A stretch of 23,271 bases of DNA from IMG/VR virus record IMGVR_UViG_2563366867_000008; one strand, given 5' to 3'. Positions 5,346 to 23,271 of this stretch are shown here, in pieces. Numbering within the stretch: the stretch's first letter is position 1; every line of letters starts with the position of its first letter. Under the pieces are notes generated by a model, which was not told the DNA's origin, ran no database searches, and worked only from the letters and a program-made list of their open reading frames with translations. Origin of the DNA: a virus (lineage: Duplodnaviria; Heunggongvirae; Uroviricota; Caudoviricetes). The position numbers were made by a program, and so were the translations under genes.

Positions 5346-5346
5346 C

Positions 5347-7631: not shown

Positions 7632-7657
7632 GAGCCGGGTTACTCCCGGCTTTTTTT
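7632..7657 (+). terminator. Plus-strand rho-independent terminator (orphan) immediately 3' of the first Rha gene stop
   Basis: Stem GCCGGG-ttact-CCCGGC followed by TTTTTTT on plus strand; on the minus strand the same hairpin is boxB-like (6-bp stem, 5-nt loop). Confidence 0.55.
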
Positions 7658-8364: not shown

Positions 8365-8588
8365 TGTTGGTCTCCTGTGGGCTTGTCATCTTCTGTATTC
8401 GCTAGACTTGGGTGTGTATATGGAATGCTCGTATCCAGATGACAAAGAATGGCAACATCCTCCGGAACACCTCGCGTTTTCCACTTTCCAACACCTTGAC
8501 TGCCACGAGGCCTTCCTTTCTTTGGGAACCTGCGACCAATAGCGGCATTGGTTTTAAATTGAATTTTTAATATTTCATAAAGGGTCAT
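8361..8588 (-). CDS. Hypothetical small basic protein in the cro position (doubtful)
   Basis: 75-aa ORF, ATGA overlap with Rha gene, weak RBS, low-complexity K/R/G/P-rich composition; no HTH recognised. Confidence 0.25.
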   Translation of the reverse strand: MTLYEILKIQFKTNAAIGRRFPKKGRPRGSQGVGKWKTRGVPEDVAILCHLDTSIPYTHPSLANTEDDKPTGDQQ

Positions 8589-8599
8589 TCTTTAGTCTC

Positions 8600-8680
8600 A
8601 CACCAGATACTTTGTTATCCAACGATGTTAACCACAGGAACCCAAAGTATCAAGAAATTCTGTTACTTTAGTATCAACAG
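8600..8680. promoter_or_regulatory. Right operator/divergent promoter region (OR-like)
   Basis: AGTATCAA half-sites at 8646-8653 and 8668-8675, inverted GATACTTTG at 8606-8614; lies between the cI-like start and the minus-strand early operon. Confidence 0.6.
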
Positions 8681-8699
8681 CCATGAGAGGAGAAGAAAA

Positions 8700-9356
8700 A
8701 TGAAGTCTTTAGGTGAACGTCTCATCAACGCACGGCAAAAAGCTGGGTTAACACAAGATGCGTTGGCTAAAAAAGCTGGGGTCACCAGAGTTGCAATCAG
8801 TAAAGCCGAGCAAGGCCTTACAAAAAGTTTCAACGGTGACACCCTTTTTAAAGTTGCAGCTGCACTGCAGTGTTCACCGCAGTGGCTTCAGAACGGAGAT
8901 GAAAAAGATAAGCATTGGGAAAATAATGTTAAGAGCTGCCCACAGAGAGACACAGCATACTCTTACCCTGTAATTAACTGGGTTCAGGCAGGATTATTCG
9001 CAACTTCTGGTGATGACTACAACATGTATGATCAGGATAATTGGAGGCATTCTGTAAAATACGCTGGTGAGAGGGGGTTCTGGCTGGAAGTGCACGGAGA
9101 CTCAATGACTTCGCCCGTAGGAATAACATTTCCTGAAGGAATGTCGATCCTTGTCAACCCAGATAAAGAAGTTTTTTCAGGGTGTTACGTCATCGCCAGA
9201 AAAAAATCTACCAATGAAGCAACATTCAAAAAATATATTTCTGAAATGGGAAAGGCGTTTCTAAAGCCCCTTAATCCACAATATCCAATCATAGAAATGG
9301 ACAATGATTGCGAAATAGTAGGTGTTGTGGTTGATGCCAGGTGGGATATTTTCTAA
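8700..9356 (+). CDS. cI-type repressor (N-terminal HTH-XRE, C-terminal S24 LexA-like autopeptidase)
   Basis: Start at internal ATG with RBS GAGAGGAGAAG; HTH LTQDALAKKAGVTRVAISKAE; GDSM serine and downstream Lys typical of S24. Confidence 0.85.
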   Translation: MKSLGERLINARQKAGLTQDALAKKAGVTRVAISKAEQGLTKSFNGDTLFKVAAALQCSPQWLQNGDEKDKHWENNVKSCPQRDTAYSYPVINWVQAGLFATSGDDYNMYDQDNWRHSVKYAGERGFWLEVHGDSMTSPVGITFPEGMSILVNPDKEVFSGCYVIARKKSTNEATFKKYISEMGKAFLKPLNPQYPIIEMDNDCEIVGVVVDARWDIF

Positions 9357-9379
9357 CCAGACACAAAACACAAAAAGAA

Positions 9380-9456
9380 ACCAAAGTATCAAAAATCACT
9401 TGCCACACCTTGATACCTTAGTTACCATAAAACAAAGTTCGTAACTGAGGTATCAT
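9380..9456. promoter_or_regulatory. Left operator/promoter region (OL/PL-like)
   Basis: AAAGTATCAA (9382-9392) and inverted TTGATACCTT (9410-9419), GGTATCA at 9449-9455, plus GTTAC...GTAAC inverted repeat; same half-site as the OR region. Confidence 0.6.
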
Positions 9457-9459
9457 CTC

Positions 9460-9876
9460 ATGATCAATAAAGCTACAACTCTTGACTGTCTCGAAGAACT
9501 GAAAAACCTCGGCAGCCTCATTACACTAATAGCAAAAGCAACACCTGATGCTACGCTCTCTAGCGATATAGAGTCATGCGCAGGACTGGCATGGGATATG
9601 ACAAATAGCATATCCAGAAAGCTATCGTCAGCAATGCTTTTACAGAACAAAAATTCTGCAATCAACAACCGTCTTCGCACCCAACGCGAAGCCTGCGGCT
9701 TAACAACCGCCGAACTCGCCAGGCTGCTCGATCTCGATGAAGAAATTATCATCCAGTGGGAGAGCGGAGAGTATGAACCAACTATCAGTATGCTTATCCC
9801 ACTGGCAAATATTCTTGGCTGCGATCCGATGTGGCTGTTAACTGGCGAAACGGCAGCAAAGGATATCTGCGCATGA
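9460..9876 (+). CDS. HTH-XRE DNA-binding protein (C-terminal HTH), first gene of the PL-side operon
   Basis: 138 aa; LTTAELARLLDLDEEIIIQWESGEYEPT HTH; occupies the position of N but has no arginine-rich motif. Confidence 0.7.
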   Translation: MINKATTLDCLEELKNLGSLITLIAKATPDATLSSDIESCAGLAWDMTNSISRKLSSAMLLQNKNSAINNRLRTQREACGLTTAELARLLDLDEEIIIQWESGEYEPTISMLIPLANILGCDPMWLLTGETAAKDICA

Positions 9877-10115
9877 AAAACTGTGATGCTTACCATATTT
9901 GTCTCATTGGTGAATTGCTTGATTTCATACAAAAAAGCACTGCGCGCAATAATAAAAATATAACATATGGTGATCTGGTAATAATTTCAGAGGATATAAA
10001 GAGCATCGCTCTTAAATTCAAGAGCGACGCGAGTATTGATGACGCTATTTACGCTTATCTTGCGAAAATAATTGACGGATCCAAAATCCAGCCTCTGGAT
10101 GAACCTCGTCAGTGA
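9873..10115 (+). CDS. Hypothetical protein coupled to the HTH gene
   Basis: 80 aa from ATG at 9873 (ATGA overlap with upstream stop); AT-rich codon usage; 3' end overlaps a convergent ORF. Confidence 0.4.
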   Translation: MKNCDAYHICLIGELLDFIQKSTARNNKNITYGDLVIISEDIKSIALKFKSDASIDDAIYAYLAKIIDGSKIQPLDEPRQ

Positions 10116-10272
10116 AAAACTCCTTTGATGAAGATGAGAACTGCTTCATAAACTTTACTTTATCTTCAGGTGAAACTACCTGACGAATTAATGCGGAGAT
10201 AGCAACTTTGTGCCAAATTAATTCTTTTTTGAGTTCTGAAATCTCTTTTTCGAGTTGCTCTGCGTTAATCAT
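10045..10272 (-). CDS. Hypothetical coiled-coil protein, own promoter, opposite to PL transcription
   Basis: 75 aa; strong RBS GGAGGA 4-5 nt upstream of ATG. Confidence 0.55.
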   Translation of the reverse strand: MINAEQLEKEISELKKELIWHKVAISALIRQVVSPEDKVKFMKQFSSSSKEFFTDEVHPEAGFWIRQLFSQDKRK

Positions 10273-10451
10273 TTATCCTCCATTGAGAGCTGAATTGAAA
10301 ATGGGGACCAACACGCGGCTACGTGTGGTCGTGCGCCGGACACGGATAAGCATCCGGTAACTGATTATCAATCATTGCGGAAACAGTCTCAATATGAAAA
10401 CACTTCTGAGACTCGCTATATAGCAGGACATATAAGTCAGCTGAGGAAGCC

Positions 10452-10817
10452 ATGAAAAAGTTCGAAAACATAACTGTTCTCCATGTTGATGACTTTGATT
10501 ATACAAACCCGGAACTTCTCCCGGAGGTTGTAAAGGCAATAGATGTTGCCGATATAGTGATTAGAGGAAAGAGAATTGTCAAAAACAGGCTCGCATGCAC
10601 TTCAGAAGCAATGACAGAAACAACCTCACAGCAAGATAATTACGAAGGCATTTGTCTGGAGCCTGATTCATTTGCGGTAAATGTTTATCATTTATTGCAT
10701 GCAACACAGGTATTACATATGTCCAGTAATCACGAAACGAAAACACTCGGCAGCGAAATTCTGAATTTTGCATGTGAGTATGCAAAAACTGCTGCCGAAA
10801 AAGAATTAGCGCAATAA
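10452..10817 (+). CDS. Hypothetical protein
   Basis: 121 aa; RBS GAGGAAG; divergent from the 10045-10272 gene across a palindrome-rich 180-bp spacer. Confidence 0.55.
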   Translation: MKKFENITVLHVDDFDYTNPELLPEVVKAIDVADIVIRGKRIVKNRLACTSEAMTETTSQQDNYEGICLEPDSFAVNVYHLLHATQVLHMSSNHETKTLGSEILNFACEYAKTAAEKELAQ

Positions 10818-10895
10818 CAACAAATATGCTCTGAACGTTTATTGCGGTTTTATCGCCGGGGATTGTTACAATCTTAATCCACAGGAGGATTTATT

Positions 10896-11009
10896 ATGAC
10901 TTTTATAAAGAATATGGCATCACACAAGACCGCCTGTCTTATTGCACAATACGGTGAAAATTACATGCATATTGCCTGCTTATTTCTGCGTAAAGCATAC
11001 GGGAAATAA
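10896..11009 (+). CDS. Small ORF (37 aa) with strong RBS
   Basis: AGGAGG 7 nt upstream of ATG; below the 60-aa cutoff of the ORF track; translated manually. Confidence 0.3.
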   Translation: MTFIKNMASHKTACLIAQYGENYMHIACLFLRKAYGK

Positions 11010-11012
11010 CAA

Positions 11013-11372
11013 ATGACACATGAACCCATTAATACATATCGTCGCCGTATAGCTGTTGCAGCACTCCATCGAATAAAACGTAAAACAGGTGGTGATCTGC
11101 TTATTGTTGACCTTCTGGATGGGAACATTACGACCATAGAAATAACAGAACAGTTTATAAACCAGTTGCTGTTGCGCTTTGAAGATATTACCCGTGGTGA
11201 ATTGGGTCGAGTGGAGGGTGAAACAGAATTCCGAACTGCATACCAGAATGCCATCGGGATTAATCAACATACTGAATACCAGGCTGAAACCGGAAAGTTA
11301 ATTATAGACAACCTTTTACAAGAGGTTATTGATTACGCGAAAGAAAAATATATCAGCGGAGGAATTAACTGA
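11013..11372 (+). CDS. Hypothetical protein
   Basis: 119-aa ORF, first of four tightly packed same-strand ORFs. Confidence 0.5.
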   Translation: MTHEPINTYRRRIAVAALHRIKRKTGGDLLIVDLLDGNITTIEITEQFINQLLLRFEDITRGELGRVEGETEFRTAYQNAIGINQHTEYQAETGKLIIDNLLQEVIDYAKEKYISGGIN

Positions 11373-11587
11373 TGGCTAATTTATCCCCTGTATCTGTTGT
11401 GCACGAAAAAGTGCAGATCGTTATGACAATTGAAAATGGCCAGGTAACAGATGTCTGCAAAGTCCGCGATGGAGAGCTGATTGCCAGCATGGATACATTC
11501 ATATGGCTGGCAGAAAGAGCGGGGTATCAGATAACAGCACCTGCTCAGGAGGAAACCAGTGACATTAACAGCAACGCGAATTCCTGA
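11372..11587 (+). CDS. Hypothetical protein
   Basis: 71 aa; RBS GGAGG; start overlaps upstream stop. Confidence 0.5.
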   Translation: MANLSPVSVVHEKVQIVMTIENGQVTDVCKVRDGELIASMDTFIWLAERAGYQITAPAQEETSDINSNANS

Positions 11588-11777
11588 GTGGGTCCACCAG
11601 CAGGCGTTGCTGGTCCTGCGGCGGTACAGATGCCGACGTATATTCCCGCATCGGATACAGCGCAACGGATATCTCAGTCTGAAGGTTAACCGTCGCTGGC
11701 GGCTGTTATCGAAAGACGACGGCCGGAACTGGGAAATAATGAGTCATGAACGTTATTCGGGAGAAATAAAGAAATGA
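11559..11777 (+). CDS. Hypothetical basic protein (GTG start)
   Basis: 72 aa; AGGAGG 6 nt upstream of GTG. Confidence 0.45.
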   Translation: MTLTATRIPEWVHQQALLVLRRYRCRRIFPHRIQRNGYLSLKVNRRWRLLSKDDGRNWEIMSHERYSGEIKK

Positions 11778-12166
11778 TCGACAACCGCACCGCCAGCGCC
11801 ATTGACCAGGCATTACAGAAACATGATACACCCGTCGGCCCGTTATTTTTTGTAACACATCACGGAAGAACAAAAAAATGCCTCACTCGAAAAACGGCAA
11901 TTCGTTACCTGGCATTCTTTATGACCACCCGCGCTTTTGAACGTTCAGGATTCCGACAACGCCATCCTGACAAGCGTTTTATCTTCAACGGGAATGAAAT
12001 ATGGAAACGTGGAGAATCAACCACAGAGTACACCCGCGCACACCAGCGAACAATCAGACGACTGCGCAGACTCATCGCCAGGAAACAGTATACAGAAAAA
12101 TGGTTCAGAAAATATGACACATGGAGCGCCGGATATTACGAACTGATGGCAACAAAACCATTCTGA
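11774..12166 (+). CDS. Hypothetical basic protein
   Basis: 130 aa; ATGA overlap with upstream gene. Confidence 0.5.
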   Translation: MIDNRTASAIDQALQKHDTPVGPLFFVTHHGRTKKCLTRKTAIRYLAFFMTTRAFERSGFRQRHPDKRFIFNGNEIWKRGESTTEYTRAHQRTIRRLRRLIARKQYTEKWFRKYDTWSAGYYELMATKPF

Positions 12167-12226
12167 CGTAAACGAAATTAACCATGACGCAATTAAATAA
12201 GGCAAGCTGAATACAGCAGGAGGACC

Positions 12227-12415
12227 ATGAACATTTATTTCAGAATAGTTATATCACTGGCAATTATCGCATGTATTTACGGATTGCTCGTCCCGTTTCT
12301 GATATCAATGAAGGATACGGTAGCGGTGATTTCTGGCTTTGCACTGACGTTTCTAACCCCGCCATGTATTTATACCATTTATAAGGGGCTTTCTTTCACT
12401 AAGGATAAAAGATGA
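12227..12415 (+). CDS. Small membrane protein (two predicted TM helices)
   Basis: 62 aa, hydrophobic; RBS AGGAGG; stop overlaps start of SPFH gene (ATGA). Confidence 0.6.
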   Translation: MNIYFRIVISLAIIACIYGLLVPFLISMKDTVAVISGFALTFLTPPCIYTIYKGLSFTKDKR

Positions 12416-13239
12416 AAAAAATTATTTTTTCTTTAGCCATTGTTCTGCCTGCCATTGGCCTTGTCGGTTGTGATCGTGTTGAGCCTGGTAATGTGGGCAT
12501 CAAAGTCAACAAACTTGGCGACGACAAAGGCGTCGGTGAAGTGGTCGGTGTTGGTCGCTACTGGACAGGCTGGAACACTGAAGTTTATATCTTCCCGACC
12601 TTTAAGCAGATGAAGACCTACGATGATCCATTCAGTTTCCAGATGAGCGATGGAACAACCATTGGTTACCACATCGGAGTAGCCTACAAGGTTGATCCAT
12701 CCAAAGTTACCACAGTCTTTCAGACCTACCGCAAAGGCGTGGACGACATTACCGACACCGACCTGCGCCAGAAGATAGCCGACGCACTCAACCGACTGGC
12801 CAGCAAAATGACCACCGACAAATTTATCGACGGCGGCAAGTCTGAGCTGCTGGATGCAGCTCTTAAAGACATTCAGGAAGAAATGACGCCCATCGGTATT
12901 CAGGTAATAAGCCTCTCATATGTGGGTAAGCCGGAGTACCCGCCTACTGTTATCGACAGCATTAATGCCAAAGTCACGGCGAACCAGAAAACTCTGCAAC
13001 GCGAGCAGGAAGTAAAACAGCGCGAAGCGGAAGCCAACATGTTGCGCGCGGAAGCTGCCGGACAGGCTGATGCGATTCGCACAAAAGCCCAGGCTGAAGC
13101 CGATGCTATTCGTTTACGCGGTGAAGCTCTGCGTCAGAACCCCGGTGTTATGGAGCTGGAAGCCATCAATAAATGGAACGGCACGCTGCCGCAATACATG
13201 ACCAGCGGTGCCAATACACCATTTATCCAGGTTAAATAA
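12412..13239 (+). CDS. SPFH/band-7 (prohibitin/stomatin-like) lipoprotein with C-terminal Ala/Glu-rich coiled coil
   Basis: 275 aa; signal peptide with lipobox LVGC; SPFH-like core; RBS AAGGA. Confidence 0.7.
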   Translation: MKKIIFSLAIVLPAIGLVGCDRVEPGNVGIKVNKLGDDKGVGEVVGVGRYWTGWNTEVYIFPTFKQMKTYDDPFSFQMSDGTTIGYHIGVAYKVDPSKVTTVFQTYRKGVDDITDTDLRQKIADALNRLASKMTTDKFIDGGKSELLDAALKDIQEEMTPIGIQVISLSYVGKPEYPPTVIDSINAKVTANQKTLQREQEVKQREAEANMLRAEAAGQADAIRTKAQAEADAIRLRGEALRQNPGVMELEAINKWNGTLPQYMTSGANTPFIQVK

Positions 13240-13310
13240 CTTAATATGCCCGGCAGGCCGTCGGGCTAAGGGAAAAGCAGATAAACACTCATAATACTCA
13301 ACCGCAAATA

Positions 13311-13652
13311 ATGAACTATGACCCAAATCTGACGTCATGCGGACGCATGGCGAAACAAACCGTTCGATTAACTTTCGGGCAATGGGAATACCGCGAAACA
13401 TTCGAAGTCACTGTCGGTGGCAACCTGACCGGACTCGATGTTATCAGTTGCGCTATTGAAAGCCTGTACGCAACGCTGCCTTATGAAGAAGTCGAGGATG
13501 AGCGTACAGGGGAAACAGATATCATGGCCACCATTAATATTGGCGAACTGACATGCCAGGATGAAGACCTGTCCGGAGAGCTCTGGCTTGCCGGGATGCT
13601 TATCTCAGCAGAAATTATCAGTATTGAACCCGCTACAAACATACGGCTCTGA
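13311..13652 (+). CDS. Hypothetical acidic protein (start uncertain, possibly 13347)
   Basis: 113-aa ORF, no recognised domain. Confidence 0.4.
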   Translation: MNYDPNLTSCGRMAKQTVRLTFGQWEYRETFEVTVGGNLTGLDVISCAIESLYATLPYEEVEDERTGETDIMATINIGELTCQDEDLSGELWLAGMLISAEIISIEPATNIRL

Positions 13653-13683
13653 AGTTCTCACTATTCAGAGAGCAGGAGAAAAA

Positions 13684-13926
13684 ATGTTCGCTTTGATTAA
13701 TCAGGGACAACTGTATACCGACAGTGCCGGTTACCCGGTAATAATTATTCGCTGCATAAACAACACTGTGTTGTACAGAAGAATTGATGGGCGAACACAG
13801 TCAGTAAAAATAAACGATTTCAATGAACTGTTTGAACGGATTGATCACCAGGAATACCGACAAATTCTGGCAGAAACAGAGCAGGAGGCTCATCTGAAAA
13901 AATTACGGGCCATGAAAAGGAAGTAA
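13684..13926 (+). CDS. Hypothetical protein
   Basis: 80 aa from internal ATG with RBS AGGAG; longer ORF from 13561 less likely. Confidence 0.45.
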   Translation: MFALINQGQLYTDSAGYPVIIIRCINNTVLYRRIDGRTQSVKINDFNELFERIDHQEYRQILAETEQEAHLKKLRAMKRK

Positions 13927-13929
13927 AGA

Positions 13930-14076
13930 ATGAATAAAGCGTTTGAGCTATGGGTGCGCCAGCGTTACGGCAATCGCTATGACCTGACGCGAGATGTTGA
14001 CGGCTTCTACTGTCGTGAAATTGTGAAACGAATGTTTGAAGTGTGGTGCCACTGCCGTGGGCTGAGTGTTGTGTGA
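13930..14076 (+). CDS. Small Cys-containing protein (48 aa)
   Basis: RBS AAGGAAG; manually translated; immediately precedes putative xis. Confidence 0.35.
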   Translation: MNKAFELWVRQRYGNRYDLTRDVDGFYCREIVKRMFEVWCHCRGLSVV

Positions 14077-14084
14077 GGTAATAC

Positions 14085-14321
14085 ATGGGCAATGTGATTC
14101 AACTGGCTCCCAATGAATGGGTTTGTGAAAGCGTTCTTATCGCAATTACCGGGCTCAAACCAGGCACAATTCTTCGGGCCCGGAAAGAATGCTGGATGGT
14201 TGGAAGAGAGTATATTCACGTATCACCAGACGGTAATCCAAAGCCTTCCAGTGAATGTATGTATAACAGAAAAGCAATAGATGCCTGGGTCGCCTCAATG
14301 AAAAACAAACAACCCAGGTGA
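14085..14321 (+). CDS. Putative excisionase
   Basis: 78 aa directly upstream of integrase in the same orientation; assignment is positional, sequence not confidently matched to a family. Confidence 0.45.
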   Translation: MGNVIQLAPNEWVCESVLIAITGLKPGTILRARKECWMVGREYIHVSPDGNPKPSSECMYNRKAIDAWVASMKNKQPR

Positions 14322-14376
14322 TTTAATATCATGAAATATGTAAGCTCGTATCGCTCTTGGGCGTCTGGAGGTATCG

Positions 14377-15690
14377 ATGGATAAAGTCAAATATCCAACA
14401 GGCGTCGAAAACCACGGCGGCACATTACGCATCTGGTTTAATTTTAAAGGTAAACGTGTCAGGGAAAATCTTGGTGTCCCTGACACTGCCAAGAACAGGA
14501 AGATCGCCGGGGAACTGCGGACATCAGTATGTTTTGCCATCCGCACAGGAAGCTTTGATTATGCTGCACAGTTCCCTGACTCCCCCAACCTTCAGGCTTT
14601 TGGGGTAAGTAAAAAAGAAATTACGGTGAAGGAACTTGAAGAAAAGTGGCTGGATCTGAAACGAATGGAAATCTCTGCAAATGCATTCAATCGCTATGAA
14701 TCCGTTGCAAGAACGATGGTTCCGAAAATTGGAGGCAGTAAACTGGTGTCATCGGTAACCAAAGAGGAATTGCTGTATATCAGGAAAGATTTGCTGACCG
14801 GGTATCAGAATTCAACGAAAAACAAAGCAGCAGCAAAAGGACGGAGCGTCGTTACTGTAAATTATTACATGACGACAATCGCTGGAATGTTTCAGTTTGC
14901 TGCAGATCACGGTTACTTAGAAGCAAATCCCTTCCAGGGAATTAAGCCTCTTAAAAGAGCCAGGGCAGAGCCAGATCCGCTAACTCGTGACGAATTTATT
15001 CGCCTGATAGATGCTTGCCGACATCAGCAGACGAAAAACCTGTGGTCATTGGCTGTGTACACAGGAATGCGTCACGGTGAACTGGTCTCCCTGGCCTGGG
15101 AAGATATCGATCTGAAGGCAGGAACAATTACCATCAGGCGCAATTATACGAAACTTGGTGAGTTCACTCTACCGAAAACTGAAGCAAGCACAAACAGGGT
15201 TGTGCACCTTATCCAGCCCGCTATCAGTGTCCTGAAAAATCAGGCTGAAATGACAAGACTGGGTAAGCAGTACAACATCAAGGTGCAACTACGTGAATAT
15301 GGACGTTCAGTGAACCATGAATGTACTTTCGTGTTTAACCCTCAAGTGGTTAGAAAAAGCGAACAGGTAGGTTTTGTCTACAAAGTCGATTCTGTAGGTG
15401 ACTCATGGGAAACAGCCATTAAGCGTGCAGGGATCAGGCATCGAAAGGCATACCAGTCACGACACACTTATGCGTGCTGGTCATTATCTGCCGGAGCAAA
15501 CCCAAGCTTCATTGCCAGCCAGATGGGCCATGCAAGTGCCCAGATGGTATTCAATGTATACGGAGCATGGATGACTGACAGCAATGCAGAACAGATCGCA
15601 ATGCTGAATCAGAAGCTGACAGATTATGTCCCAATGATGCCCCATAGTCACCAAAGTGACACCAGAGGCTTATTAAAATCAGTAAGTTAA
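14377..15690 (+). CDS. Tyrosine integrase (lambda Int family)
   Basis: 437 aa; RBS GGAGG; C-terminal catalytic region with R...HxxR...Y-type residues (RHTYACWSLSAGANPSFIASQMGHASAQMVFNVY); abuts disrupted host gene. Confidence 0.85.
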   Translation: MDKVKYPTGVENHGGTLRIWFNFKGKRVRENLGVPDTAKNRKIAGELRTSVCFAIRTGSFDYAAQFPDSPNLQAFGVSKKEITVKELEEKWLDLKRMEISANAFNRYESVARTMVPKIGGSKLVSSVTKEELLYIRKDLLTGYQNSTKNKAAAKGRSVVTVNYYMTTIAGMFQFAADHGYLEANPFQGIKPLKRARAEPDPLTRDEFIRLIDACRHQQTKNLWSLAVYTGMRHGELVSLAWEDIDLKAGTITIRRNYTKLGEFTLPKTEASTNRVVHLIQPAISVLKNQAEMTRLGKQYNIKVQLREYGRSVNHECTFVFNPQVVRKSEQVGFVYKVDSVGDSWETAIKRAGIRHRKAYQSRHTYACWSLSAGANPSFIASQMGHASAQMVFNVYGAWMTDSNAEQIAMLNQKLTDYVPMMPHSHQSDTRGLLKSVS

Positions 15691-15716
15691 TCCTTAATAC
15701 CCGTCATGTTAACTGC

Positions 15717-16118
15717 GTGGAGGGTAACACCACGCTTTATGCCCTGCCGAAACCCGAGGTTGTCCTGCGCTGGCGTGAGCAGACCACAGATGACTTCCGC
15801 TTCTGTTTTAAGTTTCCGGCGACCATTTCGCATCAGGCAGCATTACGGCATTGCGATGATTTAGTGACTGAATTTTTGACCCGCATGTCACCGTTGGCTC
15901 CGCGCATTGGACAATACTGGCTGCAACTGCCTGCCACATTCGGCCCACGGGAGCTGCCTGCGCTTTGGCATTTTCTCGATTCTCTTCCCGGTGAATTTAA
16001 TTATGGGGTGGAAGTCCGCCATCCACAGTTTTTCGCCAAAGGGGAAGAGGAACAAACGCTTAATCGCGGTTTACATCAGCGCGGCGTTAATCGGGTGATT
16101 TTTATTAGACACGTTTAA
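15717..16118 (+). pseudogene. Internal fragment of a DUF72-family (yecE-like) host gene, cut on both sides
   Basis: 133-aa frame with no proper start; EVRH-containing DUF72-like motifs; frame ends 5 codons after a sharp GC drop at ~16100; recognition of yecE is from memory. Confidence 0.45.
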
Positions 16119-16168
16119 ATACACCATCTAAAACGATACAATCTAGGGCATCAGTTTTGAGGTGAACA

Positions 16169-17692
16169 ATGAAACGTGCCATTTCTTACATCAGGTTTTC
16201 ATCTGAGAAGCAATCCCGAGGTGATTCATTACGCCGACAGTCTAAGATGGTTAATGACTGGCTTAAGGCTCATCCTGAGTACTACCTTGACCAAGATTTA
16301 TCTTTTCGTGATTTGGGGGTGAGTGGGTTCACTGGTAAGCACTTGAAAGGTGGCTTAGGTGACTTTTTAACCGCTATCGAGAAAGGGCTTGTTAAAGCTG
16401 GTGATACGCTCTTGATAGAATCTCTTGACCGTCTGTCACGTCAAGATGTAGACCAAGCAAGTGAGCTACTCAGAAACATTCTTCGCTCTGGTGTAGATGT
16501 GGTCACCTTGTCCGATGGTGAACATTACACAAAGGAAAGCTTAAAAGACCCGTTAGCTCTGATTAAAAGCATTTTGATAATGCAGCGGTCGCATGAGGAG
16601 AGTTTGCGTAAATCTGAACGTATCCAAGCTGCATGGGATGCAAAGAAAGAAGCTGCTAAAGCCGGTATCAAGATTTATAAGCGTTGTCCTGCATGGCTTA
16701 AGCTTAATGATGACCGTAAGACCTTCTCTGTGATACCTGAGAAGGTAGAAACTGTGAAGAGGTGCTTTCAATTACGGTTAGAGGGTAAGTCTATTTGGGA
16801 GATTGTCAGGACTCTTAATGATGAAGGTCACCAGACACTTAACCAGTACAAAGCAGGTAAGTTTGGTCAAACCTCAGTGCAAGACCTTCTGAAAAATCGC
16901 TCTGTAATTGGTTACTTCACACCTAAAGGCTGTGAGGAGATAGCTGGTTATTTCCCCCCTATCATCCCTGAGACTGATTTCTACAAAGTCCAGCAACTAT
17001 CATATTCTCGTTATGGAAGAAAGCCTGCTTCAGATAAACCATTGAGTGTGAATCTTTTCAAAGGTGTTATCCGTTGTTCTGAATGTGGTCATGCTTTGAT
17101 TATCACAGGCTTTAGCGATACAAGAAACGGGATTTATCGTTGTCCTCTTCGTAATGAAAACCGTTGTAGTGCTAAAGGACTTTCACGTAAGCAAACCGAT
17201 GGTACATTGCTTGCCCTGCTATCCCGTATAGACCGATTTGATAGCGATATGACGAATACCATAGACACACTGAAGCTACACCGTGAACACATCTCAAGCA
17301 ATATTGAAAAGCTGGTACAGCTATCACTTGAAATTGAAGACTTGTCCGCTATTACCAGCAAACTAAAACAGTTAAAAGGTGAGCTATCACAGGTTGATGC
17401 GGATATCGAGAAGGAGACACAACGCCTTAAATCTATTGATGTTGGTTGTTTGTCTGATTGTGACTTGACTACAAAGGCGGGAAGGATTGAAGCACAACTG
17501 ATAATCAAAAGTGCTGTTAAAGAGGTCATTTTAAATACTGCTAAACGTCGCTGTAAAGTAACTTTTCACAATAGTAAGTCAATCACCCTACCAATAACAG
17601 AAACCCCCTCAGAGGACGTTACAGAGGCTATACAGTCGCTTTCTGAAGTCACTGAGAGGGGGTTGATAGATGTTGATGAGGTTATCATATAG
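16169..17692 (+). CDS. Large serine recombinase (serine integrase)
   Basis: 507 aa; N-terminal resolvase catalytic motif AISYIRFSSEKQ...RQ, recombinase domain, Cys-rich zinc ribbon (CSECGH...YRCP...RC), C-terminal coiled coil; RBS GAGGTGA; candidate -10 TACAAT upstream. Confidence 0.85.
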   Translation: MKRAISYIRFSSEKQSRGDSLRRQSKMVNDWLKAHPEYYLDQDLSFRDLGVSGFTGKHLKGGLGDFLTAIEKGLVKAGDTLLIESLDRLSRQDVDQASELLRNILRSGVDVVTLSDGEHYTKESLKDPLALIKSILIMQRSHEESLRKSERIQAAWDAKKEAAKAGIKIYKRCPAWLKLNDDRKTFSVIPEKVETVKRCFQLRLEGKSIWEIVRTLNDEGHQTLNQYKAGKFGQTSVQDLLKNRSVIGYFTPKGCEEIAGYFPPIIPETDFYKVQQLSYSRYGRKPASDKPLSVNLFKGVIRCSECGHALIITGFSDTRNGIYRCPLRNENRCSAKGLSRKQTDGTLLALLSRIDRFDSDMTNTIDTLKLHREHISSNIEKLVQLSLEIEDLSAITSKLKQLKGELSQVDADIEKETQRLKSIDVGCLSDCDLTTKAGRIEAQLIIKSAVKEVILNTAKRRCKVTFHNSKSITLPITETPSEDVTEAIQSLSEVTERGLIDVDEVII

Positions 17693-17706
17693 TTGAGATT
17701 CTATCG

Positions 17707-18480
17707 TCAGAATCGCTTGTTAGGATTCACAGAAAATTTCTTCAAAGTACTACCTGTACCAGCATTATTAAGCACCTTTGAAGCTTGCGCATTAGCGGCA
17801 TCTGAGAAGGTGCTTTTTCCATTCTCAACTTTGACACTTTTACCACAATTGATACGGGCTTGAAGTTGCTCATTAGTGAGTTCACTCGTAGAGCGATTAT
17901 ATAGCTCCTGACACAGCAACATACCATTACCTAGACTTGTCGTAGTGTTACCAGTGTTCTTCTTAGAAGTTGCACCACCATCATTCGTGGTAGCAGTCTT
18001 TCCAGTTGCAGCAGAAATATCAGTCTGACCAACAATAGCTTTGAAGTTAATTTCCTGAAAAGTTAGCTGGATTCTTAGACCGTTTGAAATCCCCACATCT
18101 TTAGAGGCTTTAAAACTCGTAATAATGGAATCGTCAATTTTAATTCCGTCTTTACAGATGACCGAAATAATCTGTTTCTGGTCACGCCAGCTTTCAAGAG
18201 TGTCGATGAAGTTTTCTACTAATTGACCCTGACGAGTTAATAATAAGCTTCCTTCATAGCCAACTACAACGACACCACTAATAGTGATTGTTCTGGGTGC
18301 TCTTTGCACATTATCTGTAACGGTTTGTCCTGATTGCATGTTCTGTGTAGTCACCTGCATAGGACTATCAAATTCCATGTTTTCAGTTGCTGATAAGGTT
18401 AAGAAGGCATCTACATTATCTCTTAAGTGGAAATAGATGCCGTCTTTGCCACTATATTTGATTTGGTTAGAGTAAATCAT
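17707..18480 (-). CDS. Hypothetical protein with Thr/Gly-rich linker (possible tail-associated protein)
   Basis: 257 aa from internal ATG with RBS AAAGGGGA (ORF extends to 18501); follows the tape-measure-like gene; no domain recognised. Confidence 0.5.
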
Positions 18481-18555
18481 TAAATTCCCCTTTGATTTCA
18501 AAGGCTTAGTGTATTTTAATCATTTTTAACCAAGCCTTTGATATATAAGTGTTTT

Positions 18556-18626
18556 CTCTGTTAAGCGTGTTGTACGTAAATTCTATTTTTCAGTGTGGGT
18601 ATTAGCTTTACAGATTTCACGTAGCA
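18556..18626 (-). promoter_or_regulatory. Conserved cis-element, copy B (upstream of 264-aa gene)
   Basis: Blocks CTCTGTTAAGCGTG / TACGTAAA / GTGGGTAT / AGATTTCACGTAGCA shared with copy A at 20702-20772. Confidence 0.6.
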
Positions 18627-18637
18627 TTCGACTATTA

Positions 18638-20686
18638 TCAATCATCTTCTGGGAATGATGAACTTAATAGCGTAGCTTCTGCGTATTGGTCGTAGATATT
18701 ACTGCTAAAGGTCATAAAGCTGGTTTCATCTGGTTTAATGGCAACTTCACCACCAAGTGAAACTTTCACAGGCTCCTGAATACGTTTGCTCAAAGCACTA
18801 ATTTCATCTCTCAGGCTTTGGATATCCGTATTCGTTAATGCCGCATCTTGTCTCATGGTGATTAATTCTGGATGCTGGAAGTTAGCAAGATTCATAGCTG
18901 CACTATTAAACCAACCTTTCACATCGTCCATAGTAAATACTGGCTTAAGTCCAGATTCTTTAGCTAACTCTGGTAATTTAGCTTGTGCTTCCATTCGTTC
19001 AGGTGTAGAGGCTAGTCTTTCATAACCTGCATAGAGAGCGCTACCAGCTAATAGCATATTCCCAAGATTCAGTCTTGATGGTTTCCCATTCTTTCTATTC
19101 ACGTTATCCGCTGTAGTATCAGCAACCTGACCTAATCTTGTGATAGCAGTCATAAGCCCGTAAATACTTCTGGTTACACCAACAACTTTATTTACAGCAA
19201 TAACACCAGCCAAGACTTTTAAACTATTAATCAAGCCAGAACCTAAAGCATCAACAACTTTCTTTTGTTCATCGGTTAAACCACGATAAGCTAATGTCAC
19301 CTCATCAAAGAACGCTCGCACCTTGTAACTAATATCGGCCAGACTATCGACACCATGTGACATATCAGTCATCAAGCTACCAAGAGATTCACCAAGACTT
19401 TTACCACTTCCACCAAGAGCGTTTAAAAGCGTTGTTAAGCTTCTTGTAAAATCTTGCAGACCACTTTCAGAACCTCTGAAGATACTATCAAGCGTGGTAT
19501 TCCAAGAGTTTTTCAGGTTCCCTAATTGTGCCTGTGTACTTTCTGAAATAGCTTTCCAGCCACCTTTAGCGGTGATTTGTCTATTCAGTTCCTGAGTGAC
19601 CTTCTGAAGAGTATCGGCAGATTTTAAAGCCCCCTTCTTCATGGCATCAAATAATTCCTGTTCAGTCTTTCCGGTTGCTTTAGCGAATACCTGAACCATA
19701 CCAGGAACAGCTTCAGCTAGTTGCCCCTTAAGCTCTTCAGCCATAACCTGACCCTTACCAGCCATCTGTGATAATGCTGTCAGTGCTCGCTTAATCTCTT
19801 CTTCACTTCGACCCATCAGACGAGAATAGCCAATCATACTTCTAAAAAGTTCTTCAGAACCTTGAATACCCATAGACTCTTTAGCTGAAGCACCGAAACC
19901 AGCAAACTGTGATTGCAGTTCAGCGATATCTAAACCCGTTGTTTGAGCTAATGACTTTGTGAACTCTTTTACCTGACCTGCATCTTTATCAAATACGAAA
20001 TCAATTGAACGTTCAGCACTTGCACGCTGTAAACCAATTTCCATTACTCGCTGATAAGCTGCCAAAGCACTTTGAAAAGTGTAAATAGCCGTACCCGCTT
20101 TAATTGCACTTGAAGCTAGTACATCTAAACCATTTGAAGCATTTTCACTGTGATTATTTTTGCTGGTGGTCTTGTTAAACTTAGAAAGTGTTTCACGTAG
20201 ATTTTGATTTAACTTTGCTAACTCACGATTAAAAGCTTCGTTTCCAAGTGTCTTGGATTTACTACTTAATGCGTAAAACTGACTCTTAATGTATTTCTCG
20301 ACAATTGGGTTAAGACCTTTCAGCTTAGACATATTCGCTGAATAAGCCGCTGTGATTGCTCTGTTGCCGCTAATTCGTGGCTGTCTTGGCTGTCTAAGTG
20401 GCTTTAAAGTATCCTCAATTTCCGTTTTAATCTTAAACGCTCTAGTGTTTTTAAGACGCTGCTCAATCTTGTCAAAGGTCTTATTAAACTTCCTTTCAAG
20501 TTGCCCTAAAGAACTTGTCAGATTGCTGTCAAGTTGCTTGGTATCGACCTTAAACGCTCTATTCAAATTACGTTCAATTCTTTGTGCTGACTGCAAAGCT
20601 GCCTTTTCAACTCTTTGCAAGCCCTTAATAACGTTCTCGCTGAAGCCTAGCTCAACGATAAAACTATCAACTTTAAATTGTGCCAT
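18638..20686 (-). CDS. Phage tail tape-measure-like protein
   Basis: 682 aa, largely alpha-helical/coiled-coil; central LSQMAGKGQVMAEELKGQLAEAVPGMVQVFAKATGKTEQELFDAMKKGAL segment matches the tape-measure core motif as I remember it. Confidence 0.65.
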   Translation of the reverse strand: MAQFKVDSFIVELGFSENVIKGLQRVEKAALQSAQRIERNLNRAFKVDTKQLDSNLTSSLGQLERKFNKTFDKIEQRLKNTRAFKIKTEIEDTLKPLRQPRQPRISGNRAITAAYSANMSKLKGLNPIVEKYIKSQFYALSSKSKTLGNEAFNRELAKLNQNLRETLSKFNKTTSKNNHSENASNGLDVLASSAIKAGTAIYTFQSALAAYQRVMEIGLQRASAERSIDFVFDKDAGQVKEFTKSLAQTTGLDIAELQSQFAGFGASAKESMGIQGSEELFRSMIGYSRLMGRSEEEIKRALTALSQMAGKGQVMAEELKGQLAEAVPGMVQVFAKATGKTEQELFDAMKKGALKSADTLQKVTQELNRQITAKGGWKAISESTQAQLGNLKNSWNTTLDSIFRGSESGLQDFTRSLTTLLNALGGSGKSLGESLGSLMTDMSHGVDSLADISYKVRAFFDEVTLAYRGLTDEQKKVVDALGSGLINSLKVLAGVIAVNKVVGVTRSIYGLMTAITRLGQVADTTADNVNRKNGKPSRLNLGNMLLAGSALYAGYERLASTPERMEAQAKLPELAKESGLKPVFTMDDVKGWFNSAAMNLANFQHPELITMRQDAALTNTDIQSLRDEISALSKRIQEPVKVSLGGEVAIKPDETSFMTFSSNIYDQYAEATLLSSSFPEDD

Positions 20687-20701
20687 TGTTCATATTTCAC
20701 C

Positions 20702-20772
20702 TCTGTTAAGCGTGAGCTACGTAAAAAATAATTTTTGGTGGGTATATCTGTTCAGAAGATTTCACGTAGCAC
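20702..20772 (-). promoter_or_regulatory. Conserved cis-element, copy A (upstream of tape-measure-like gene)
   Basis: Same block order as copy B; ends 15 nt from the ATG; contains inverted repeat GCTACGT...ACGTAGC. Confidence 0.6.
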
Positions 20773-20779
20773 ACATACA

Positions 20780-20821
20780 AAAAAGGGAGAAACTACCGAA
20801 TAATATCGATAATCTCTCCCC
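20780..20821 (-). terminator. Rho-independent terminator after the 69-aa gene
   Basis: Minus strand: GGGAGA...TCTCCC stem followed by TTTTTT. Confidence 0.6.
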
Positions 20822-20869
20822 GTGTTATAGATTCGATAGAACCTATCTCATACACCCAACCAATCTTTT

Positions 20870-21079
20870 TTAATGCCTGACAAGATAATGTAGTTCCGTT
20901 TCACCTATAATTTGAGCATCGGAAGGGATACGGTCGATACACCACTTTGGAATCTTGCGTGTTTTTGGTTTGCGTGAGGTGATAATTTGATGTTTGGTTT
21001 TAATTCTTAAGGCTGGCTTAGTTTGTAACTTTAAGTTTTCACAAACAGACCGAATAGTCTCTAAACGTTCTTCAAACAT
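20870..21079 (-). CDS. Small basic protein
   Basis: 69 aa; RBS GAGGTG; Lys/Arg-rich. Confidence 0.5.
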   Translation of the reverse strand: MFEERLETIRSVCENLKLQTKPALRIKTKHQIITSRKPKTRKIPKWCIDRIPSDAQIIGETELHYLVRH

Positions 21080-21102
21080 TAATCACCTCTTTTAATTCAT
21101 AA

Positions 21103-21810
21103 TCAAAGTGCTTTGCTGTATTTCTGAGAAATCTTCGTTAACTGCTCAATATCAGCCTGCATAGCAACCTTCTTCTGCGTTTCATAGTCACTAATAATCG
21201 CTTTCATGCTATCAAGTTCTTTTTTAAGCTTTTGCTTTAACTTATCCAGTTTACCGGAATAATGCTTAGTCAAATTAGCTTCAGCTAACTGAAGAATCTC
21301 TTCATCTGTTTTATCAGTCGTCAAAATAAATTGACCAGAACCCCTTAATGCTTGTCTGACATCAATTAACCGGAACCCTTCAGGGATACTTTGAAGAACT
21401 TTAGGAACGTCTTCAATCGCTGTACCAAAACCATCATTAAAGTTTCCTTCATAATAGATAAACGGGTTTGACTTAATCTCGTAAGCAATATCATATTCTG
21501 AAGGTTTCGAGGTTTCTTCGAAGTTCTTAACCGCATCGTAAGCAATATCAAGTTTAATTCTTTGTGCTTTCAGTAGTGGGTAATATTCACGCTCAAGCTC
21601 AAGTAATGATTCAGTTTTGCATACATCAGGCATCTCTTGAGGTTCAGGAGTCACAAAGATGATTTCCTTTGGTGACATCTTTAACTCTTGCTCAAGTGCA
21701 ATTCTTTCATCGTGCTCTTTGCGCTGAATAGCGATAGCTGGATGTTCAGTCTGTGGTGACCAGTCACCGAAGCTATCAATCTTTTTACCGTTAATATATA
21801 GATTTTCCAT
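21103..21810 (-). CDS. Acidic hypothetical protein with C-terminal coiled coil
   Basis: 235 aa from internal ATG with RBS GAGGAAAA (ORF extends to 21855). Confidence 0.5.
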   Translation of the reverse strand: MENLYINGKKIDSFGDWSPQTEHPAIAIQRKEHDERIALEQELKMSPKEIIFVTPEPQEMPDVCKTESLLELEREYYPLLKAQRIKLDIAYDAVKNFEETSKPSEYDIAYEIKSNPFIYYEGNFNDGFGTAIEDVPKVLQSIPEGFRLIDVRQALRGSGQFILTTDKTDEEILQLAEANLTKHYSGKLDKLKQKLKKELDSMKAIISDYETQKKVAMQADIEQLTKISQKYSKAL

Positions 21811-22063
21811 TTCATTTTCCTCTTCTAAGTAATATTCAGTTTTTAAAAAGCACACCTGACAGCCTATCTAAACTTAGAAGAGACTTAAAAGGCGGTTTGC
21901 CAAGTATGCTTTTTAAAAGCTGAAAAAGCCCTAAACATAGGTGATTCGGATATTCATGGAATCATCCTTATCTGTGAAGGGCTTTGGAGGTTTGCTTTAT
22001 AACGTTAACGAAGTTTCAGGAAAAACTTTCTTTAAAAGTTCTGTTTAAAAACTCTTAAAGAAA

Positions 22064-22083
22064 GCCCTAATCATGATTAGGGC
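22064..22083. promoter_or_regulatory. Perfect 20-bp palindrome GCCCTAATCATGATTAGGGC (operator-like)
   Basis: Exact palindrome; related half-sites AAAGCCCT at 21925-21932, AGGGCTTT at 21979-21986 and CCCTAA/TTAGGG at 22757-22778. Confidence 0.6.
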
Positions 22084-22216
22084 AAAGCTGTAAAGGGTTC
22101 AATGAATGAATGATTAAGCACTTTTCGAGATGACCTCTCAGGTTATATAAGAGGCCATGTAGCGAAAAGCATTGCACCTTTCAGAATAACTATCCCTAGA
22201 TGTAGATGGAATTGTT

Positions 22217-22243
22217 GAAAGAAATAAGAGAGCAATTCTCTCT
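22217..22243 (-). terminator. Putative terminator after the 101-aa/25-aa operon
   Basis: Minus strand: AGAGAG-aattg-CTCTCT stem followed by TATTTCTTTC. Confidence 0.45.
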
Positions 22244-22305
22244 ATAATTAAAATTATGTCATGCTTAAGGTTATTTGTCAACAGCTTTTTAACAGATTGG
22301 TAACA

Positions 22306-22383
22306 TTAATTCTTATTTACCGTATTACCTACCCAGCAACCAACAAATAGCCCTAAAACCGTCCAGAGAATAACGAGTGTCAT
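22306..22383 (-). CDS. 25-aa hydrophobic peptide (MTLVILWTVLGLFVGCWVGNTVNKN)
   Basis: Manually translated; GAGGTG 5 nt upstream; start overlaps stop of the 101-aa gene; single predicted TM helix. Confidence 0.4.
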   Translation of the reverse strand: MTLVILWTVLGLFVGCWVGNTVNKN

Positions 22384-22688
22384 TACATCACCTCACTGTA
22401 AGGGTTTAATTCATTCTGATAGGTCAAGAATACATTCAGCTTCAATAATTGCTCCGGGCTTAAATCAAGTCGGTTGCATTCGCTTGTGATAAATCTCTTG
22501 TAGTCTGGGTCTGTTACTTCCAGTTTATGAACAAAGTCACCAAGTTTAATTTCGTTGATTATATGCTTGTCAATATACGTTGACGCTTCAAAACAATGCA
22601 TGAAATAGATATTAAAGCCCGACCTGTTCAGGTCATTAAGCCAATTCATAGTTTCTTGGTCAACCATAACTTGCATTGAATAATTCAT
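22383..22688 (-). CDS. Hypothetical protein
   Basis: 101 aa; RBS AGGAAGGA; no domain recognised. Confidence 0.5.
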   Translation of the reverse strand: MNYSMQVMVDQETMNWLNDLNRSGFNIYFMHCFEASTYIDKHIINEIKLGDFVHKLEVTDPDYKRFITSECNRLDLSPEQLLKLNVFLTYQNELNPYSEVM

Positions 22689-22834
22689 TTTTAAAATCCT
22701 TCCTGTATCGCATTCTAAGACGTTTTAACCCCTTTTTTAGACCACTTAAGGCGATTCCCTAAGTTACCCTGATTAGGGGCTTAAAATCGCTTAGAATTCG
22801 TCTGGTAAAGCCTGAGAGATATGTTTTACTGTTT

Positions 22835-23050
22835 TTAGCTCAAGTCTGAGACTAATAGCCCCATCTGGTGACCGTAGTCTTTTAACCAGCTTTGCTTAAC
22901 CGGAGCCTTCAGAGAATAGTTAGGGGCTGACAAGTGAAGATAGATATCATCTTTGCCGTGGATGCTTCCCCATCCTTCGTATAACTCAAGCAAGTTTTCA
23001 AAATAACGAAATGCTTTATTAGTCTGAAGTTGTACTGTGATAGTTTTCAT
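22835..23050 (-). CDS. Hypothetical protein, second gene of an overlapping pair
   Basis: 71 aa from ATG at 23050 preceded by GGGGTG; start overlaps upstream stop by 1 nt. Confidence 0.4.
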   Translation of the reverse strand: MKTITVQLQTNKAFRYFENLLELYEGWGSIHGKDDIYLHLSAPNYSLKAPVKQSWLKDYGHQMGLLVSDLS

Positions 23051-23271
23051 CAAGCACCCCATTCAGAAATAAGCTTAATTCCCTGCTCAAGCTGTTCAGG
23101 GTCGTTATAGTCGAGTATTACCAGTGGCTTTAATTCGTGTTTAAGCTGGTGGATTTGAGAGGGTTTTAATCGTTTGTTTGCTTTGAGGGTCACATCTTCA
23201 AATTCAGCATCTGCTAAATTCTGTCTGATTAGGTGGCTGCCAAGTGTGGAATATTGGAACCTGTAACACAT
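23050..23271 (-). CDS. Hypothetical protein, first gene of the pair; 5' end may lie beyond the window
   Basis: 73-aa ORF reaching the window edge. Confidence 0.35.
   Translation of the reverse strand: MCYRFQYSTLGSHLIRQNLADAEFEDVTLKANKRLKPSQIHQLKHELKPLVILDYNDPEQLEQGIKLISEWGA

Follow-up and report, generated by a model that had tools for sequence, protein, structure and literature searches.

A serine-recombinase island in the yecE gene of Escherichia coli with chimeric Felix O1-like tail genes, a probable satellite of virulent phages

The virus record IMGVR_UViG_2563366867_000008 comprises 23,271 nucleotides of DNA, which together form the window of the present study, and its right-hand part, from about position 16100 onwards, is occupied by an AT-rich element. 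We analysed this element, which was found to combine a serine integrase with genes for a tape measure protein (TMP) and a tail tube initiator related to those of the Felix O1-like phages (Felixounavirus), and which is probably a satellite of these phages. The full element was read from the source chromosome, that of E. coli JNEC-KY173 (NZ_AP045169.1), with 100% identity over the part contained in the window. The element was 11,196 bp long, and its right end was located in JNEC-KY173 about 4 kb past the window end. Positions in this chromosomal locus are given as L001 positions; a window position equals the L001 position minus 3901. The following features were found in the window, where ORF denotes an open reading frame and aa amino acids.

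15717-16102, plus strand: 5' part of the host gene yecE (DUF72) including the attL core; aligns with yecE of strain Sakai up to ...GGTGATTTT
16096-16102, no strand: attL core TGATTTT; the identical 7 bp are present at attR, L001 31199-31205
16103-16168, plus strand: attP P' arm and 5' leader of the integrase; the arm GTTTAAATACAC lies at 16113-16124 and is joined to the attR-side arm in contig L021
16169-17692, plus strand: large serine recombinase (integrase), 507 aa; PF00239 1.6e-20, PF07508 8.6e-15, PF13408 3.5e-7
17707-18480, minus strand: tail tube initiator (Dit-like), 257 aa from ATG 18480 or 264 aa from TTG 18501; PF21821 2.7e-20
18638-20686, minus strand: TMP, 682 aa; PF20155 and TIGR02675
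20870-21079, minus strand: conserved basic protein o69, 69 aa, pI 9.9; present in 7 of the 7 comparison copies covering the position, at 45-91% identity
21103-21810, minus strand: conserved acidic protein o235, 235 aa (250 from an upstream GTG), mostly helical; specific to the element family
21811-22382, minus strand: leader of the o235-o69-TMP-tube-initiator operon, 572 bp non-coding, with a promoter and two hairpins
22383-22688, minus strand: 101-aa ORF of the variable region; 100% identical in the copy L003, 23-30% identical or absent elsewhere; no family match
22835-23050, minus strand: ORF of about 71-75 aa in the variable region; RefSeq-annotated, in some variants only
23050-23271, minus strand: 73-aa ORF whose start is the window end; the element runs on through L001 27172-31198

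The GC content was about 0.50 at window 15501-16000, fell to 0.44 and then ranged between 0.35 and 0.43 up to the window end, with the drop at about 16100. The whole element contained 38.8% GC, whereas the yecE flanks contained 50-53%; the value equalled that of Felix O1 (39.0%). Alignment with the intact yecE of strain Sakai (L009) placed the left junction at window 16096-16102. The yecE gene was split after nucleotide 478, and the core, nucleotides 472-478, occurred only once in the intact gene. In the PGAP annotation the 5' part of yecE is a DUF72 pseudogene without its C-terminus; the remainder of the gene was found past attR, followed by yecN-cmoA-cmoB. The attP, as reconstructed, contained the inverted arms GTGTATTTAGAC and GTTTAAATACAC flanking a central TT. 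A short shared core, an attP with inverted arms and a precise interruption of the target, the marks of serine-integrase att sites, were all present. The integrase contained the Resolvase, Recombinase and Zn_ribbon_recom domains of a large serine recombinase, each above the Pfam cut-off, and was 94-95% identical in other copies carried in yecE. It was located on the plus strand, and all other annotated genes, except for one 61-aa ORF, were on the minus strand, directed toward it. The original prediction, made from the window alone, had an element beginning with a large serine recombinase, in the same host gene as the neighbouring prophage, at a composition drop five codons before the end of the yecE frame. 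The Pfam domains and the GC shift agreed with this, and the frame stopped at 16118, five codons inside the element. Both insertions lie in yecE at different nucleotides (about 86 for the prophage, 472-478 for the element); the lambdoid prophage to the left of the element, whose tyrosine integrase lies at 14377-15690, was inserted separately, and its site at about nucleotide 86 is used by Stx phages in other strains (PMC8112680).

The TMP and the tube initiator were the sole virion genes recognised when the whole element was annotated. The tube initiator matched the tube initiator protein gp018 of phage Bas63 (PDB 9ndy_A) with an E value of 1.8e-129, and the TMP matched the Bas63 TMP gp017 (PDB 9ndy_F) with an E value of 8e-63. 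The tube initiator gene was 93% identical to Felix O1 at the nucleotide level over 544 bp, and its protein matched 301 phage records, essentially all of them Ounavirinae (phages of Escherichia, Salmonella, Shigella, Citrobacter, and Erwinia). In the protein, residues 12-191 contained only 2 differences from Felix O1 gp68 by BLASTP, whereas the last 70 aa or so were far more divergent; by domain, the identity to gp68 was about 96% in the N-domain and about 44% in the C-domain. The best full-length matches of the TMP were Ounavirinae TMPs, at 27-30% identity. When it was compared with the 742-aa gp67 of Felix O1, the first 45 aa were 78% identical and the middle part of about 600 residues 23%, and the C-terminal motif was kept (LLSSSFPEDD, against LLSSSYPEEE in gp67); the TMP of the element is 60 aa shorter than gp67. 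This split into conserved and divergent parts was found in 8 of 8 copies of the tube initiator and in all 6 copies with an intact TMP. In Felix O1, ORF67 (the TMP) is adjacent to and followed by ORF68, and the element contained the identical order, TMP and then tube initiator. The homology to the solved Bas63 gp17/gp18 pair, together with the gene order, identifies the two genes as a Felixounavirus TMP/tube-initiator pair. Felix O1 gp67 and gp68 are virion proteins by proteomics (PMC3185647), and the hub of Bas63 includes the tube initiator together with a fragment of the TMP (PMC12609058). The other proteins of the element had no counterpart in Felix O1.

The tape-measure-like protein of 682 aa in the original prediction is therefore a real TMP by PF20155 and TIGR02675. 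The gene had been described as isolated, which it is not, as the next gene downstream encodes the tube initiator, with which the TMP of a myophage is normally paired. The siphovirus tail used there for comparison is replaced by another source, the tail genes being derived from Felix O1-like myophages. These phages are virulent and contain no integrase, so that near-identical DNA in a chromosome points to recombination during the infection of an element-bearing cell. The 93% identity over 544 bp would imply that such recombination, inside an infected cell, was recent.

The part of the element beyond the window (L001 27172-31198) contained three small ORFs, a Rep-like gene, a Dam methylase gene, a non-coding region of 1.1 kb, and attR. 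The Rep-like protein was 320 aa long with a helix-turn-helix (HTH) and matched phrog_8102 (2e-11), phrog_428, phrog_270, and the O-like phrog_678. The methylase was a Dam-type N6-adenine methylase with a C-terminal HTH (PF05869 at 7e-16), and between its gene and attR the longest ORF had at most 53 codons. The order of transcription was methylase, Rep-like gene, small ORFs, 572-bp leader, o235, o69, TMP, and Dit-like gene. No capsid, portal, terminase, sheath, tube, baseplate-wedge, fibre, or lysis gene was found within the 11.2 kb between attL and attR. The terminase, portal, capsid, tail module, lysis and repressor-switch genes of an ordinary temperate prophage were missing from the element and were all present in the neighbouring lambdoid prophage. 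The absence of most virion and packaging genes, together with an integration system and a Rep-like replication gene of its own, is one of the two general marks of a satellite. For the other mark, induction, packaging and transfer by a helper phage, the evidence is indirect and consists of the mimicry of a phage promoter and terminal repeat, the 93% nucleotide identity to a virulent phage, and the attP form described below. The layout had been called non-standard for a prophage beforehand, with a structural module just outside the window named as the finding that would speak against this; the remaining 4 kb, once retrieved, contained no such module. Of the three possibilities listed at that time (reduced phage-derived element, satellite, tail-like module), the satellite is the one favoured by the evidence.

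Scans for other functions gave little. The Rfam scan of the whole element returned nothing, PADLOC v2 gave no defence system, its matches being limited to the orphan-methyltransferase model (6e-11) and, in the integrase, to LmuB through a weak coiled-coil similarity, and no relaxase, oriT-related or conjugation gene was detected in the element. Neither o69 nor o235 matched any family in Pfam, PHROG, NCBIfam or PADLOC, and neither was similar to gp65 and gp66 (the tail chaperones) or gp69 of Felix O1. The homologues of o235 formed 3042 near-identical clusters, enterobacterial in all those listed and with a Pfam domain in none; an exhaustive HMMER search of 1.84 billion representatives gave just 17 clusters at 50% identity. 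The AlphaFold2 model of o235 from the single sequence was poor (pLDDT 56). A model built from an alignment reached a moderate pLDDT of 72.6; it contained long helices and had no fold match in PDB or BFVD. More than 3000 of the database clusters of o235 carry the name 'transposase' from NCBI sources, so named in thousands of entries without a supporting domain; we found no Pfam domain and no transposase similarity, and the label looks like a propagated misannotation.

The neighbouring prophage (window 1-15700) was found to contain three tRNA genes (Arg, Arg, and Ile) at about 627-876, a ParE-like toxin gene, an SPFH-domain gene, and two Rha-family regulators. No stx gene was annotated within the part retrieved. 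On the other side of the element, torZ (L001 33910-36338), downstream of yecE-yecN-cmoAB, is annotated as frameshifted in JNEC-KY173.

The 1.1-kb non-coding region matched 253 phage records, essentially all Felix O1-like and always in unannotated DNA. Two segments were distinguished. Segment a (L001 30108-30196) resembled Felix O1 21526-21633, which holds the predicted promoter P41; this promoter heads the morphogenesis transcription unit of genes 41-79 (PMC3185647). The shared parts were CTTGACAAGGT at P41 and, further on, a hairpin with a T-rich tract. The 11-mer of the P41 match occurred at three Felix O1 sites, two of them in intergenic promoter regions. Relative to Felix O1, the hairpin of the element had a C inserted in one arm and a G in the opposite arm, a compensatory pair by which the pairing is preserved. 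Segment a may be a device that senses the transcription programme of the phage or keeps time with it. Intergenic regions of Felix O1 share a tandem TTGACA motif (...GTTGACAA(A/T)GCACTTGACAAGGT...), with sites at 21506-21545 of Felix O1 (L005) and at 63525-63560 and 79298 of the record L006. After the copy at 21.5 kb come a hairpin and a T-tract, located between P41 and gene 41, and this layout of promoter and then terminator suggests antitermination control of the morphogenesis unit, whose regulation was left open by the 2010 genome paper (PMC3185647). The operon leader of the element, given as 450 bp of structured non-coding DNA in the original prediction and actually 572 bp long (21811-22382), contained a strong sigma-70-like promoter at 22253-22281 (TTGACA-17-CATAAT, 11 of 12 matches, with TG), followed by two terminator-like hairpins at 22227-22243 and 22064-22083. 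The leader was 71-94% conserved across variants, and against Felix O1 it gave a weak match only, of 16/17 nt (94%) at the P41 -35 region (E 0.49).

Segment b (L001 30232-30394, about 165 bp) was inverted and homologous to Felix O1 13289-13452. An exact 613-bp direct repeat is present at both ends of the Ro111lw phage record and corresponds to Felix O1 about 12771-13339; other phage records start at or near the same two points. Segment b spans the right-hand boundary of this predicted terminal repeat. Short terminal repeats were inferred for Felix O1 (PMC3185647), and direct terminal repeats were reported in a genome announcement for six coliphages including Felixounavirus members (PMC11737134). 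The blocks common to seven variants and two phages were AAAATTTTTATAAAA, GAAAATATCTG, TCTGCT(T/A)(G/A)GTA, and CCCCCTTTGCAAAATTTTAAAATATC, with the repeat boundary in the third block. A nucleotide match to the terminal-repeat region was found in all tested variants except L007, the Citrobacter copy included. Segment b may mark a terminus or act as a signal for packaging.

A perfect 24-bp inverted repeat, ACTATGAGGTTGATTCCTAGAACA, was also found at L001 30808-30831 and 31160-31183, with its arms 328 bp apart and one arm ending 12 bp from the attR core. A related palindrome, TTGATTC-N8-14-GAATCAA, occurred in 3 copies in this element (0.34 expected), one of them in the o235 leader. The palindrome was absent in 2 of the 6 other variants scanned and was treated as variant-specific. 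The repeat and the palindrome may be a binding site for accessory machinery of the integrase or for the Rep protein.

An excised form was looked for with a 26-nt probe across the predicted attP, in which the core links the attR-side and attL-side arms (junction GACCTTGATGATTTTTATTAGACACG). One exact match was found in the metagenome collection, in contig ERZ1090866 NODE-760 (L021), which is 11,473 bp long at 6x coverage. The contig was a circular permutation of the whole element without yecE DNA, with both ends abutting in the rep gene, in the order methylase, non-coding region, attP, integrase, tube initiator, TMP, o235, small genes, and rep. L021 probably represents an excised circle or concatemer; in nature the element does occur in excised or head-to-tail form. 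Its positions 11400-11473 end in an Illumina Nextera adapter (CTGTCTCTTATACACATCT...), an artefact of untrimmed reads in the public assembly. Two short metagenome contigs considered as free circles were set aside: L016 has yecE on both sides, and L013 is a variant with a different integrase, not located at yecE.

Elements of like order and size at the yecE att site were found in ECCNB20-2, C2, O157:H7 Vac_07.1, and one metagenome contig, all without the neighbouring prophage. By megablast of the whole element, related DNA was present in 570 of 5426 complete E. coli genomes, always in the chromosome and in up to five places per genome, and some copies were at other sites with other serine recombinases. 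In the 40 genomes sampled the matched spans were at most about 12 kb. Relatives were also found in Shigella, E. albertii, and Citrobacter loci, and o235 homologues were in addition named from Salmonella and E. fergusonii. The conserved core comprised the non-coding region and the genes for o235, o69, the TMP, and the Dit-like protein. Variants differed by swaps in the region of the replication and small genes, and the non-coding region was 75-87% conserved across variants with differing replication genes. The dN/dS values against other copies were 0.12-0.15 for the integrase, 0.08-0.14 for the Dit-like gene, 0.27-0.37 for the TMP, and 0.19-0.41 for o235, and the four core genes tested are under purifying selection. 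An identity with the Sakai prophage-like element SpLE2 was considered and is not claimed; yecE is intact in Sakai, and SpLE2 lies near sbcB.

We consider that the element is a PLE-like satellite of Felix O1-like phages which builds chimeric tails, and we put the probability of this reading, derived from sequence alone, at roughly 65%. By a narrower balance we also favour a broader claim, namely that the element represents the first satellite family of strictly virulent phages to be recognised in E. coli and related bacteria, that its helper can be read from the sequence, and that it exploits Felix O1-like phages by means of its own TMP and tube initiator, which would make the tails chimeric, a copy of the terminal-repeat boundary, which would lead to its packaging, and a copy of the promoter and hairpin, which would sense infection. 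No such element was described in the literature on Felix O1, Felixounavirus, Ounavirinae, Bas63, and satellites, of which our coverage was incomplete.

Several observations weigh against the satellite. A genome of 11 kb has no obvious way to fill the capsid of a phage with an 86-kb genome, and no capsid-size-redirecting protein, small terminase or tail assembly chaperone was recognised in the element; for neither o235 nor o69 was a relative of known function detected. At 46-58 bp, the promoter match is short, and it is directed into the non-coding region rather than at a gene, and the boundaries of the terminal repeat were inferred from the ends of deposited records. The attP contig could come from a tandem chromosomal array, and the attP pattern was absent from IMG/VR, where the identifiers of the loci with o235 read as prophage calls from isolate genomes. 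The N-domain of the tube initiator in L003 was only about 75% identical at the nucleotide level to any sequenced phage, which means that not every copy is a recent phage copy and rules out the idea that every variant tracks a known phage. The TMP gene was split by an insertion sequence (IS) in L007 (O157:H7 Vac_07.1, IS1203) and in L012 (Citrobacter sp. ANG330, apparently by an IS21-like ORF pair), so that some copies are decaying; either the TMP is a recurrent IS target, or its inactivation is tolerated or selected in some lineages.

If the element is such a satellite, infection by a Felix O1-like phage would bring in phage factors that switch it on. The element would then excise, possibly with a directionality factor supplied by the phage, and replicate, and would be packaged by the phage terminase by way of the terminal-repeat mimic. 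In tails otherwise built by the phage, the TMP and tube initiator of the element would take the place of the phage versions. The phage-like N-domain of the tube initiator would sit on the phage hub and seed the phage tube, the phage-like termini of the TMP would contact the hub and the tail top, and the divergent C-domain of the tube initiator and body of the TMP would pair with each other. Alternatively, the divergent parts may spare the tail of the element from an inhibitor that the element itself encodes against the phage TMP, comparable to Rta in PLE11. The length of a TMP sets the length of the tail by the ruler principle, and if this scaling applies, the tail would be about 9 nm shorter. 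As for the capsid, we can only speculate that small capsids are made through an unrecognised factor, for which o235 would be a candidate by exclusion only, or that multimers are packaged, seven copies amounting to 78 kb or 91% of the phage genome. The outcome would be transfer of the element at the cost of phage yield.

Three other explanations were weighed. The best of them, which we nevertheless hold to be unlikely, is a stationary anti-phage island, in which the TMP and tube-initiator copies would be dominant-negative decoys and poison the tails of infecting Felix O1-like phages. The clone would thereby be protected, and the phage would neither package nor transfer the element. Conservation confined to the interfaces is equally expected of a poison subunit, and no packaging or capsid gene was recognised, yet a decoy island needs neither a replication module of its own nor a mimic of the terminal-repeat boundary, and the mimic is kept across divergent variants. 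The blocking of tail assembly is a known defence strategy, as in Tai (PMC11364771) and Rta (PMC12987554); against the island stand the existing attP form and the PADLOC result, which was nothing but an orphan methylase. Defence and satellite readings are moreover compatible, as PLEs do both.

It is more doubtful still that the element is mobilised otherwise, by conjugation or by another helper phage, and that the captured Felix O1 tail genes and DNA are without function for it. The high modularity of the replication and small-gene region, the use of several types of integrase and of insertion site, and a dependence on a Felix O1-like helper that is predicted from sequence would all suit another route; but no relaxase, oriT-related or conjugation gene was found, and within the family the captured genes form the core with the strongest conservation and are under purifying selection. 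The three phage-derived segments also recur across variants, Citrobacter included, except that the terminal-repeat match was not present in L007. A decayed temperate-phage remnant, in which the integrase, the TMP, and its neighbour gene are leftovers of deletion, would account for phage-derived genes, the adjoining prophage and the IS insertions in some copies, but it is very improbable given that one 11-kb order with intact att sites recurs in many strains with sampled spans of at most about 12 kb, that all four tested core genes are under purifying selection, that the non-coding region is 75-87% conserved across variants with different replication genes, that the donor group is strictly virulent and integrase-free, and that the rest of the element has no similarity to Felix O1.

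Such elements are present in about 10% of complete E. coli genomes and could thus, if the satellite reading is true, be a common and unrecognised cause of resistance to Felix O1-like phages. An element in about one of ten E. coli genomes that targets these phages would then matter for the prediction of host range. Felix O1-like phages serve in Salmonella typing, food biocontrol, and therapy. To our knowledge, the PLE-ICP1 system of Vibrio cholerae is the only one in which satellites of virulent phages have been studied in detail. Tape measures encoded by satellites were first shown there, in 2026 (PMC12987554). An independent family in E. coli, the bacterium most tractable to genetics and one with well-studied helpers, would, if true, test the generality of tail piracy, and the domain chimerism predicts which surfaces of the TMP and tube initiator touch the phage hub, the tube, and the tail terminator. 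Bas63, for which a full cryo-EM structure and a gene-essentiality map are available, is a useful helper alongside the Felix O1 group.

Among known systems, the hub proteins of Felixounavirus (Bas63 gp17/gp18, Felix O1 gp67/gp68) are direct sequence homologues of the pair in the element, which differs in being chromosomal, without the other 20 or so structural genes, and in the divergence of the TMP and of the C-domain of the tube initiator. The PLEs of Vibrio cholerae are serine-recombinase islands that are silent until the virulent myophage ICP1 infects, and then excise, replicate, and get packaged (PMC12987554). Their own versions of the TMP, the tail chaperone, and (in some PLEs) the baseplate hub protein take the place of the ICP1 proteins in chimeric tails (Mathur et al. 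2026, PMC12987554); in PLE11 the satellite TMP and a hub-associated protein are built into such tails (PMC12987554). The element resembles the PLEs as a small serine-recombinase island (11 kb, PLE about 18 kb) with a replication initiator of its own, a putative one in the element, and an origin-like non-coding region, repeat-rich in the element. Both have a strictly virulent myophage helper, predicted in the case of the element, and in both the satellite TMP is shorter than that of the phage and about 20-27% identical to it, with a hub-associated protein closer to that of the phage. The element differs in its hosts (Enterobacteriaceae) and helper group (Felixounavirus), in that no equivalent of the tail chaperone, the TcaP-like scaffold, NixI, CapR or Rta was recognised, and in that its hub-associated gene is a domain chimera with one half 96% identical to the phage. 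By analogy, the element appears to work like a PLE and is not filed as a member of that group, from which its host and helper differ.

The element shares with P4 a size of about 11 kb, chromosomal integration and replication functions of its own, as well as a copy of a packaging signal of the helper, which is cos in P4 and the putative terminal-repeat-boundary mimic in the element. P4, in contrast, has a tyrosine integrase, a temperate P2-like helper, Sid, Psu, and no tail proteins. The Pfam, PHROG, and NCBIfam scans found no sid, psu, delta, cos, AlpA, Pri-Rep, terS/ppi/rpp or capsid genes in the element, and with its serine recombinase and without these marker genes it is not P4-like, a PICI or a cf-PICI. 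The cf-PICIs contain their own capsids and PICI-type modules, whereas the element contains no capsid or packaging genes and an integrase of another class. Like the element, they include putative satellites with a tmp gene, and the tmp genes in cf-PICIs suggest that the manipulation of tail assembly is widespread among satellites.

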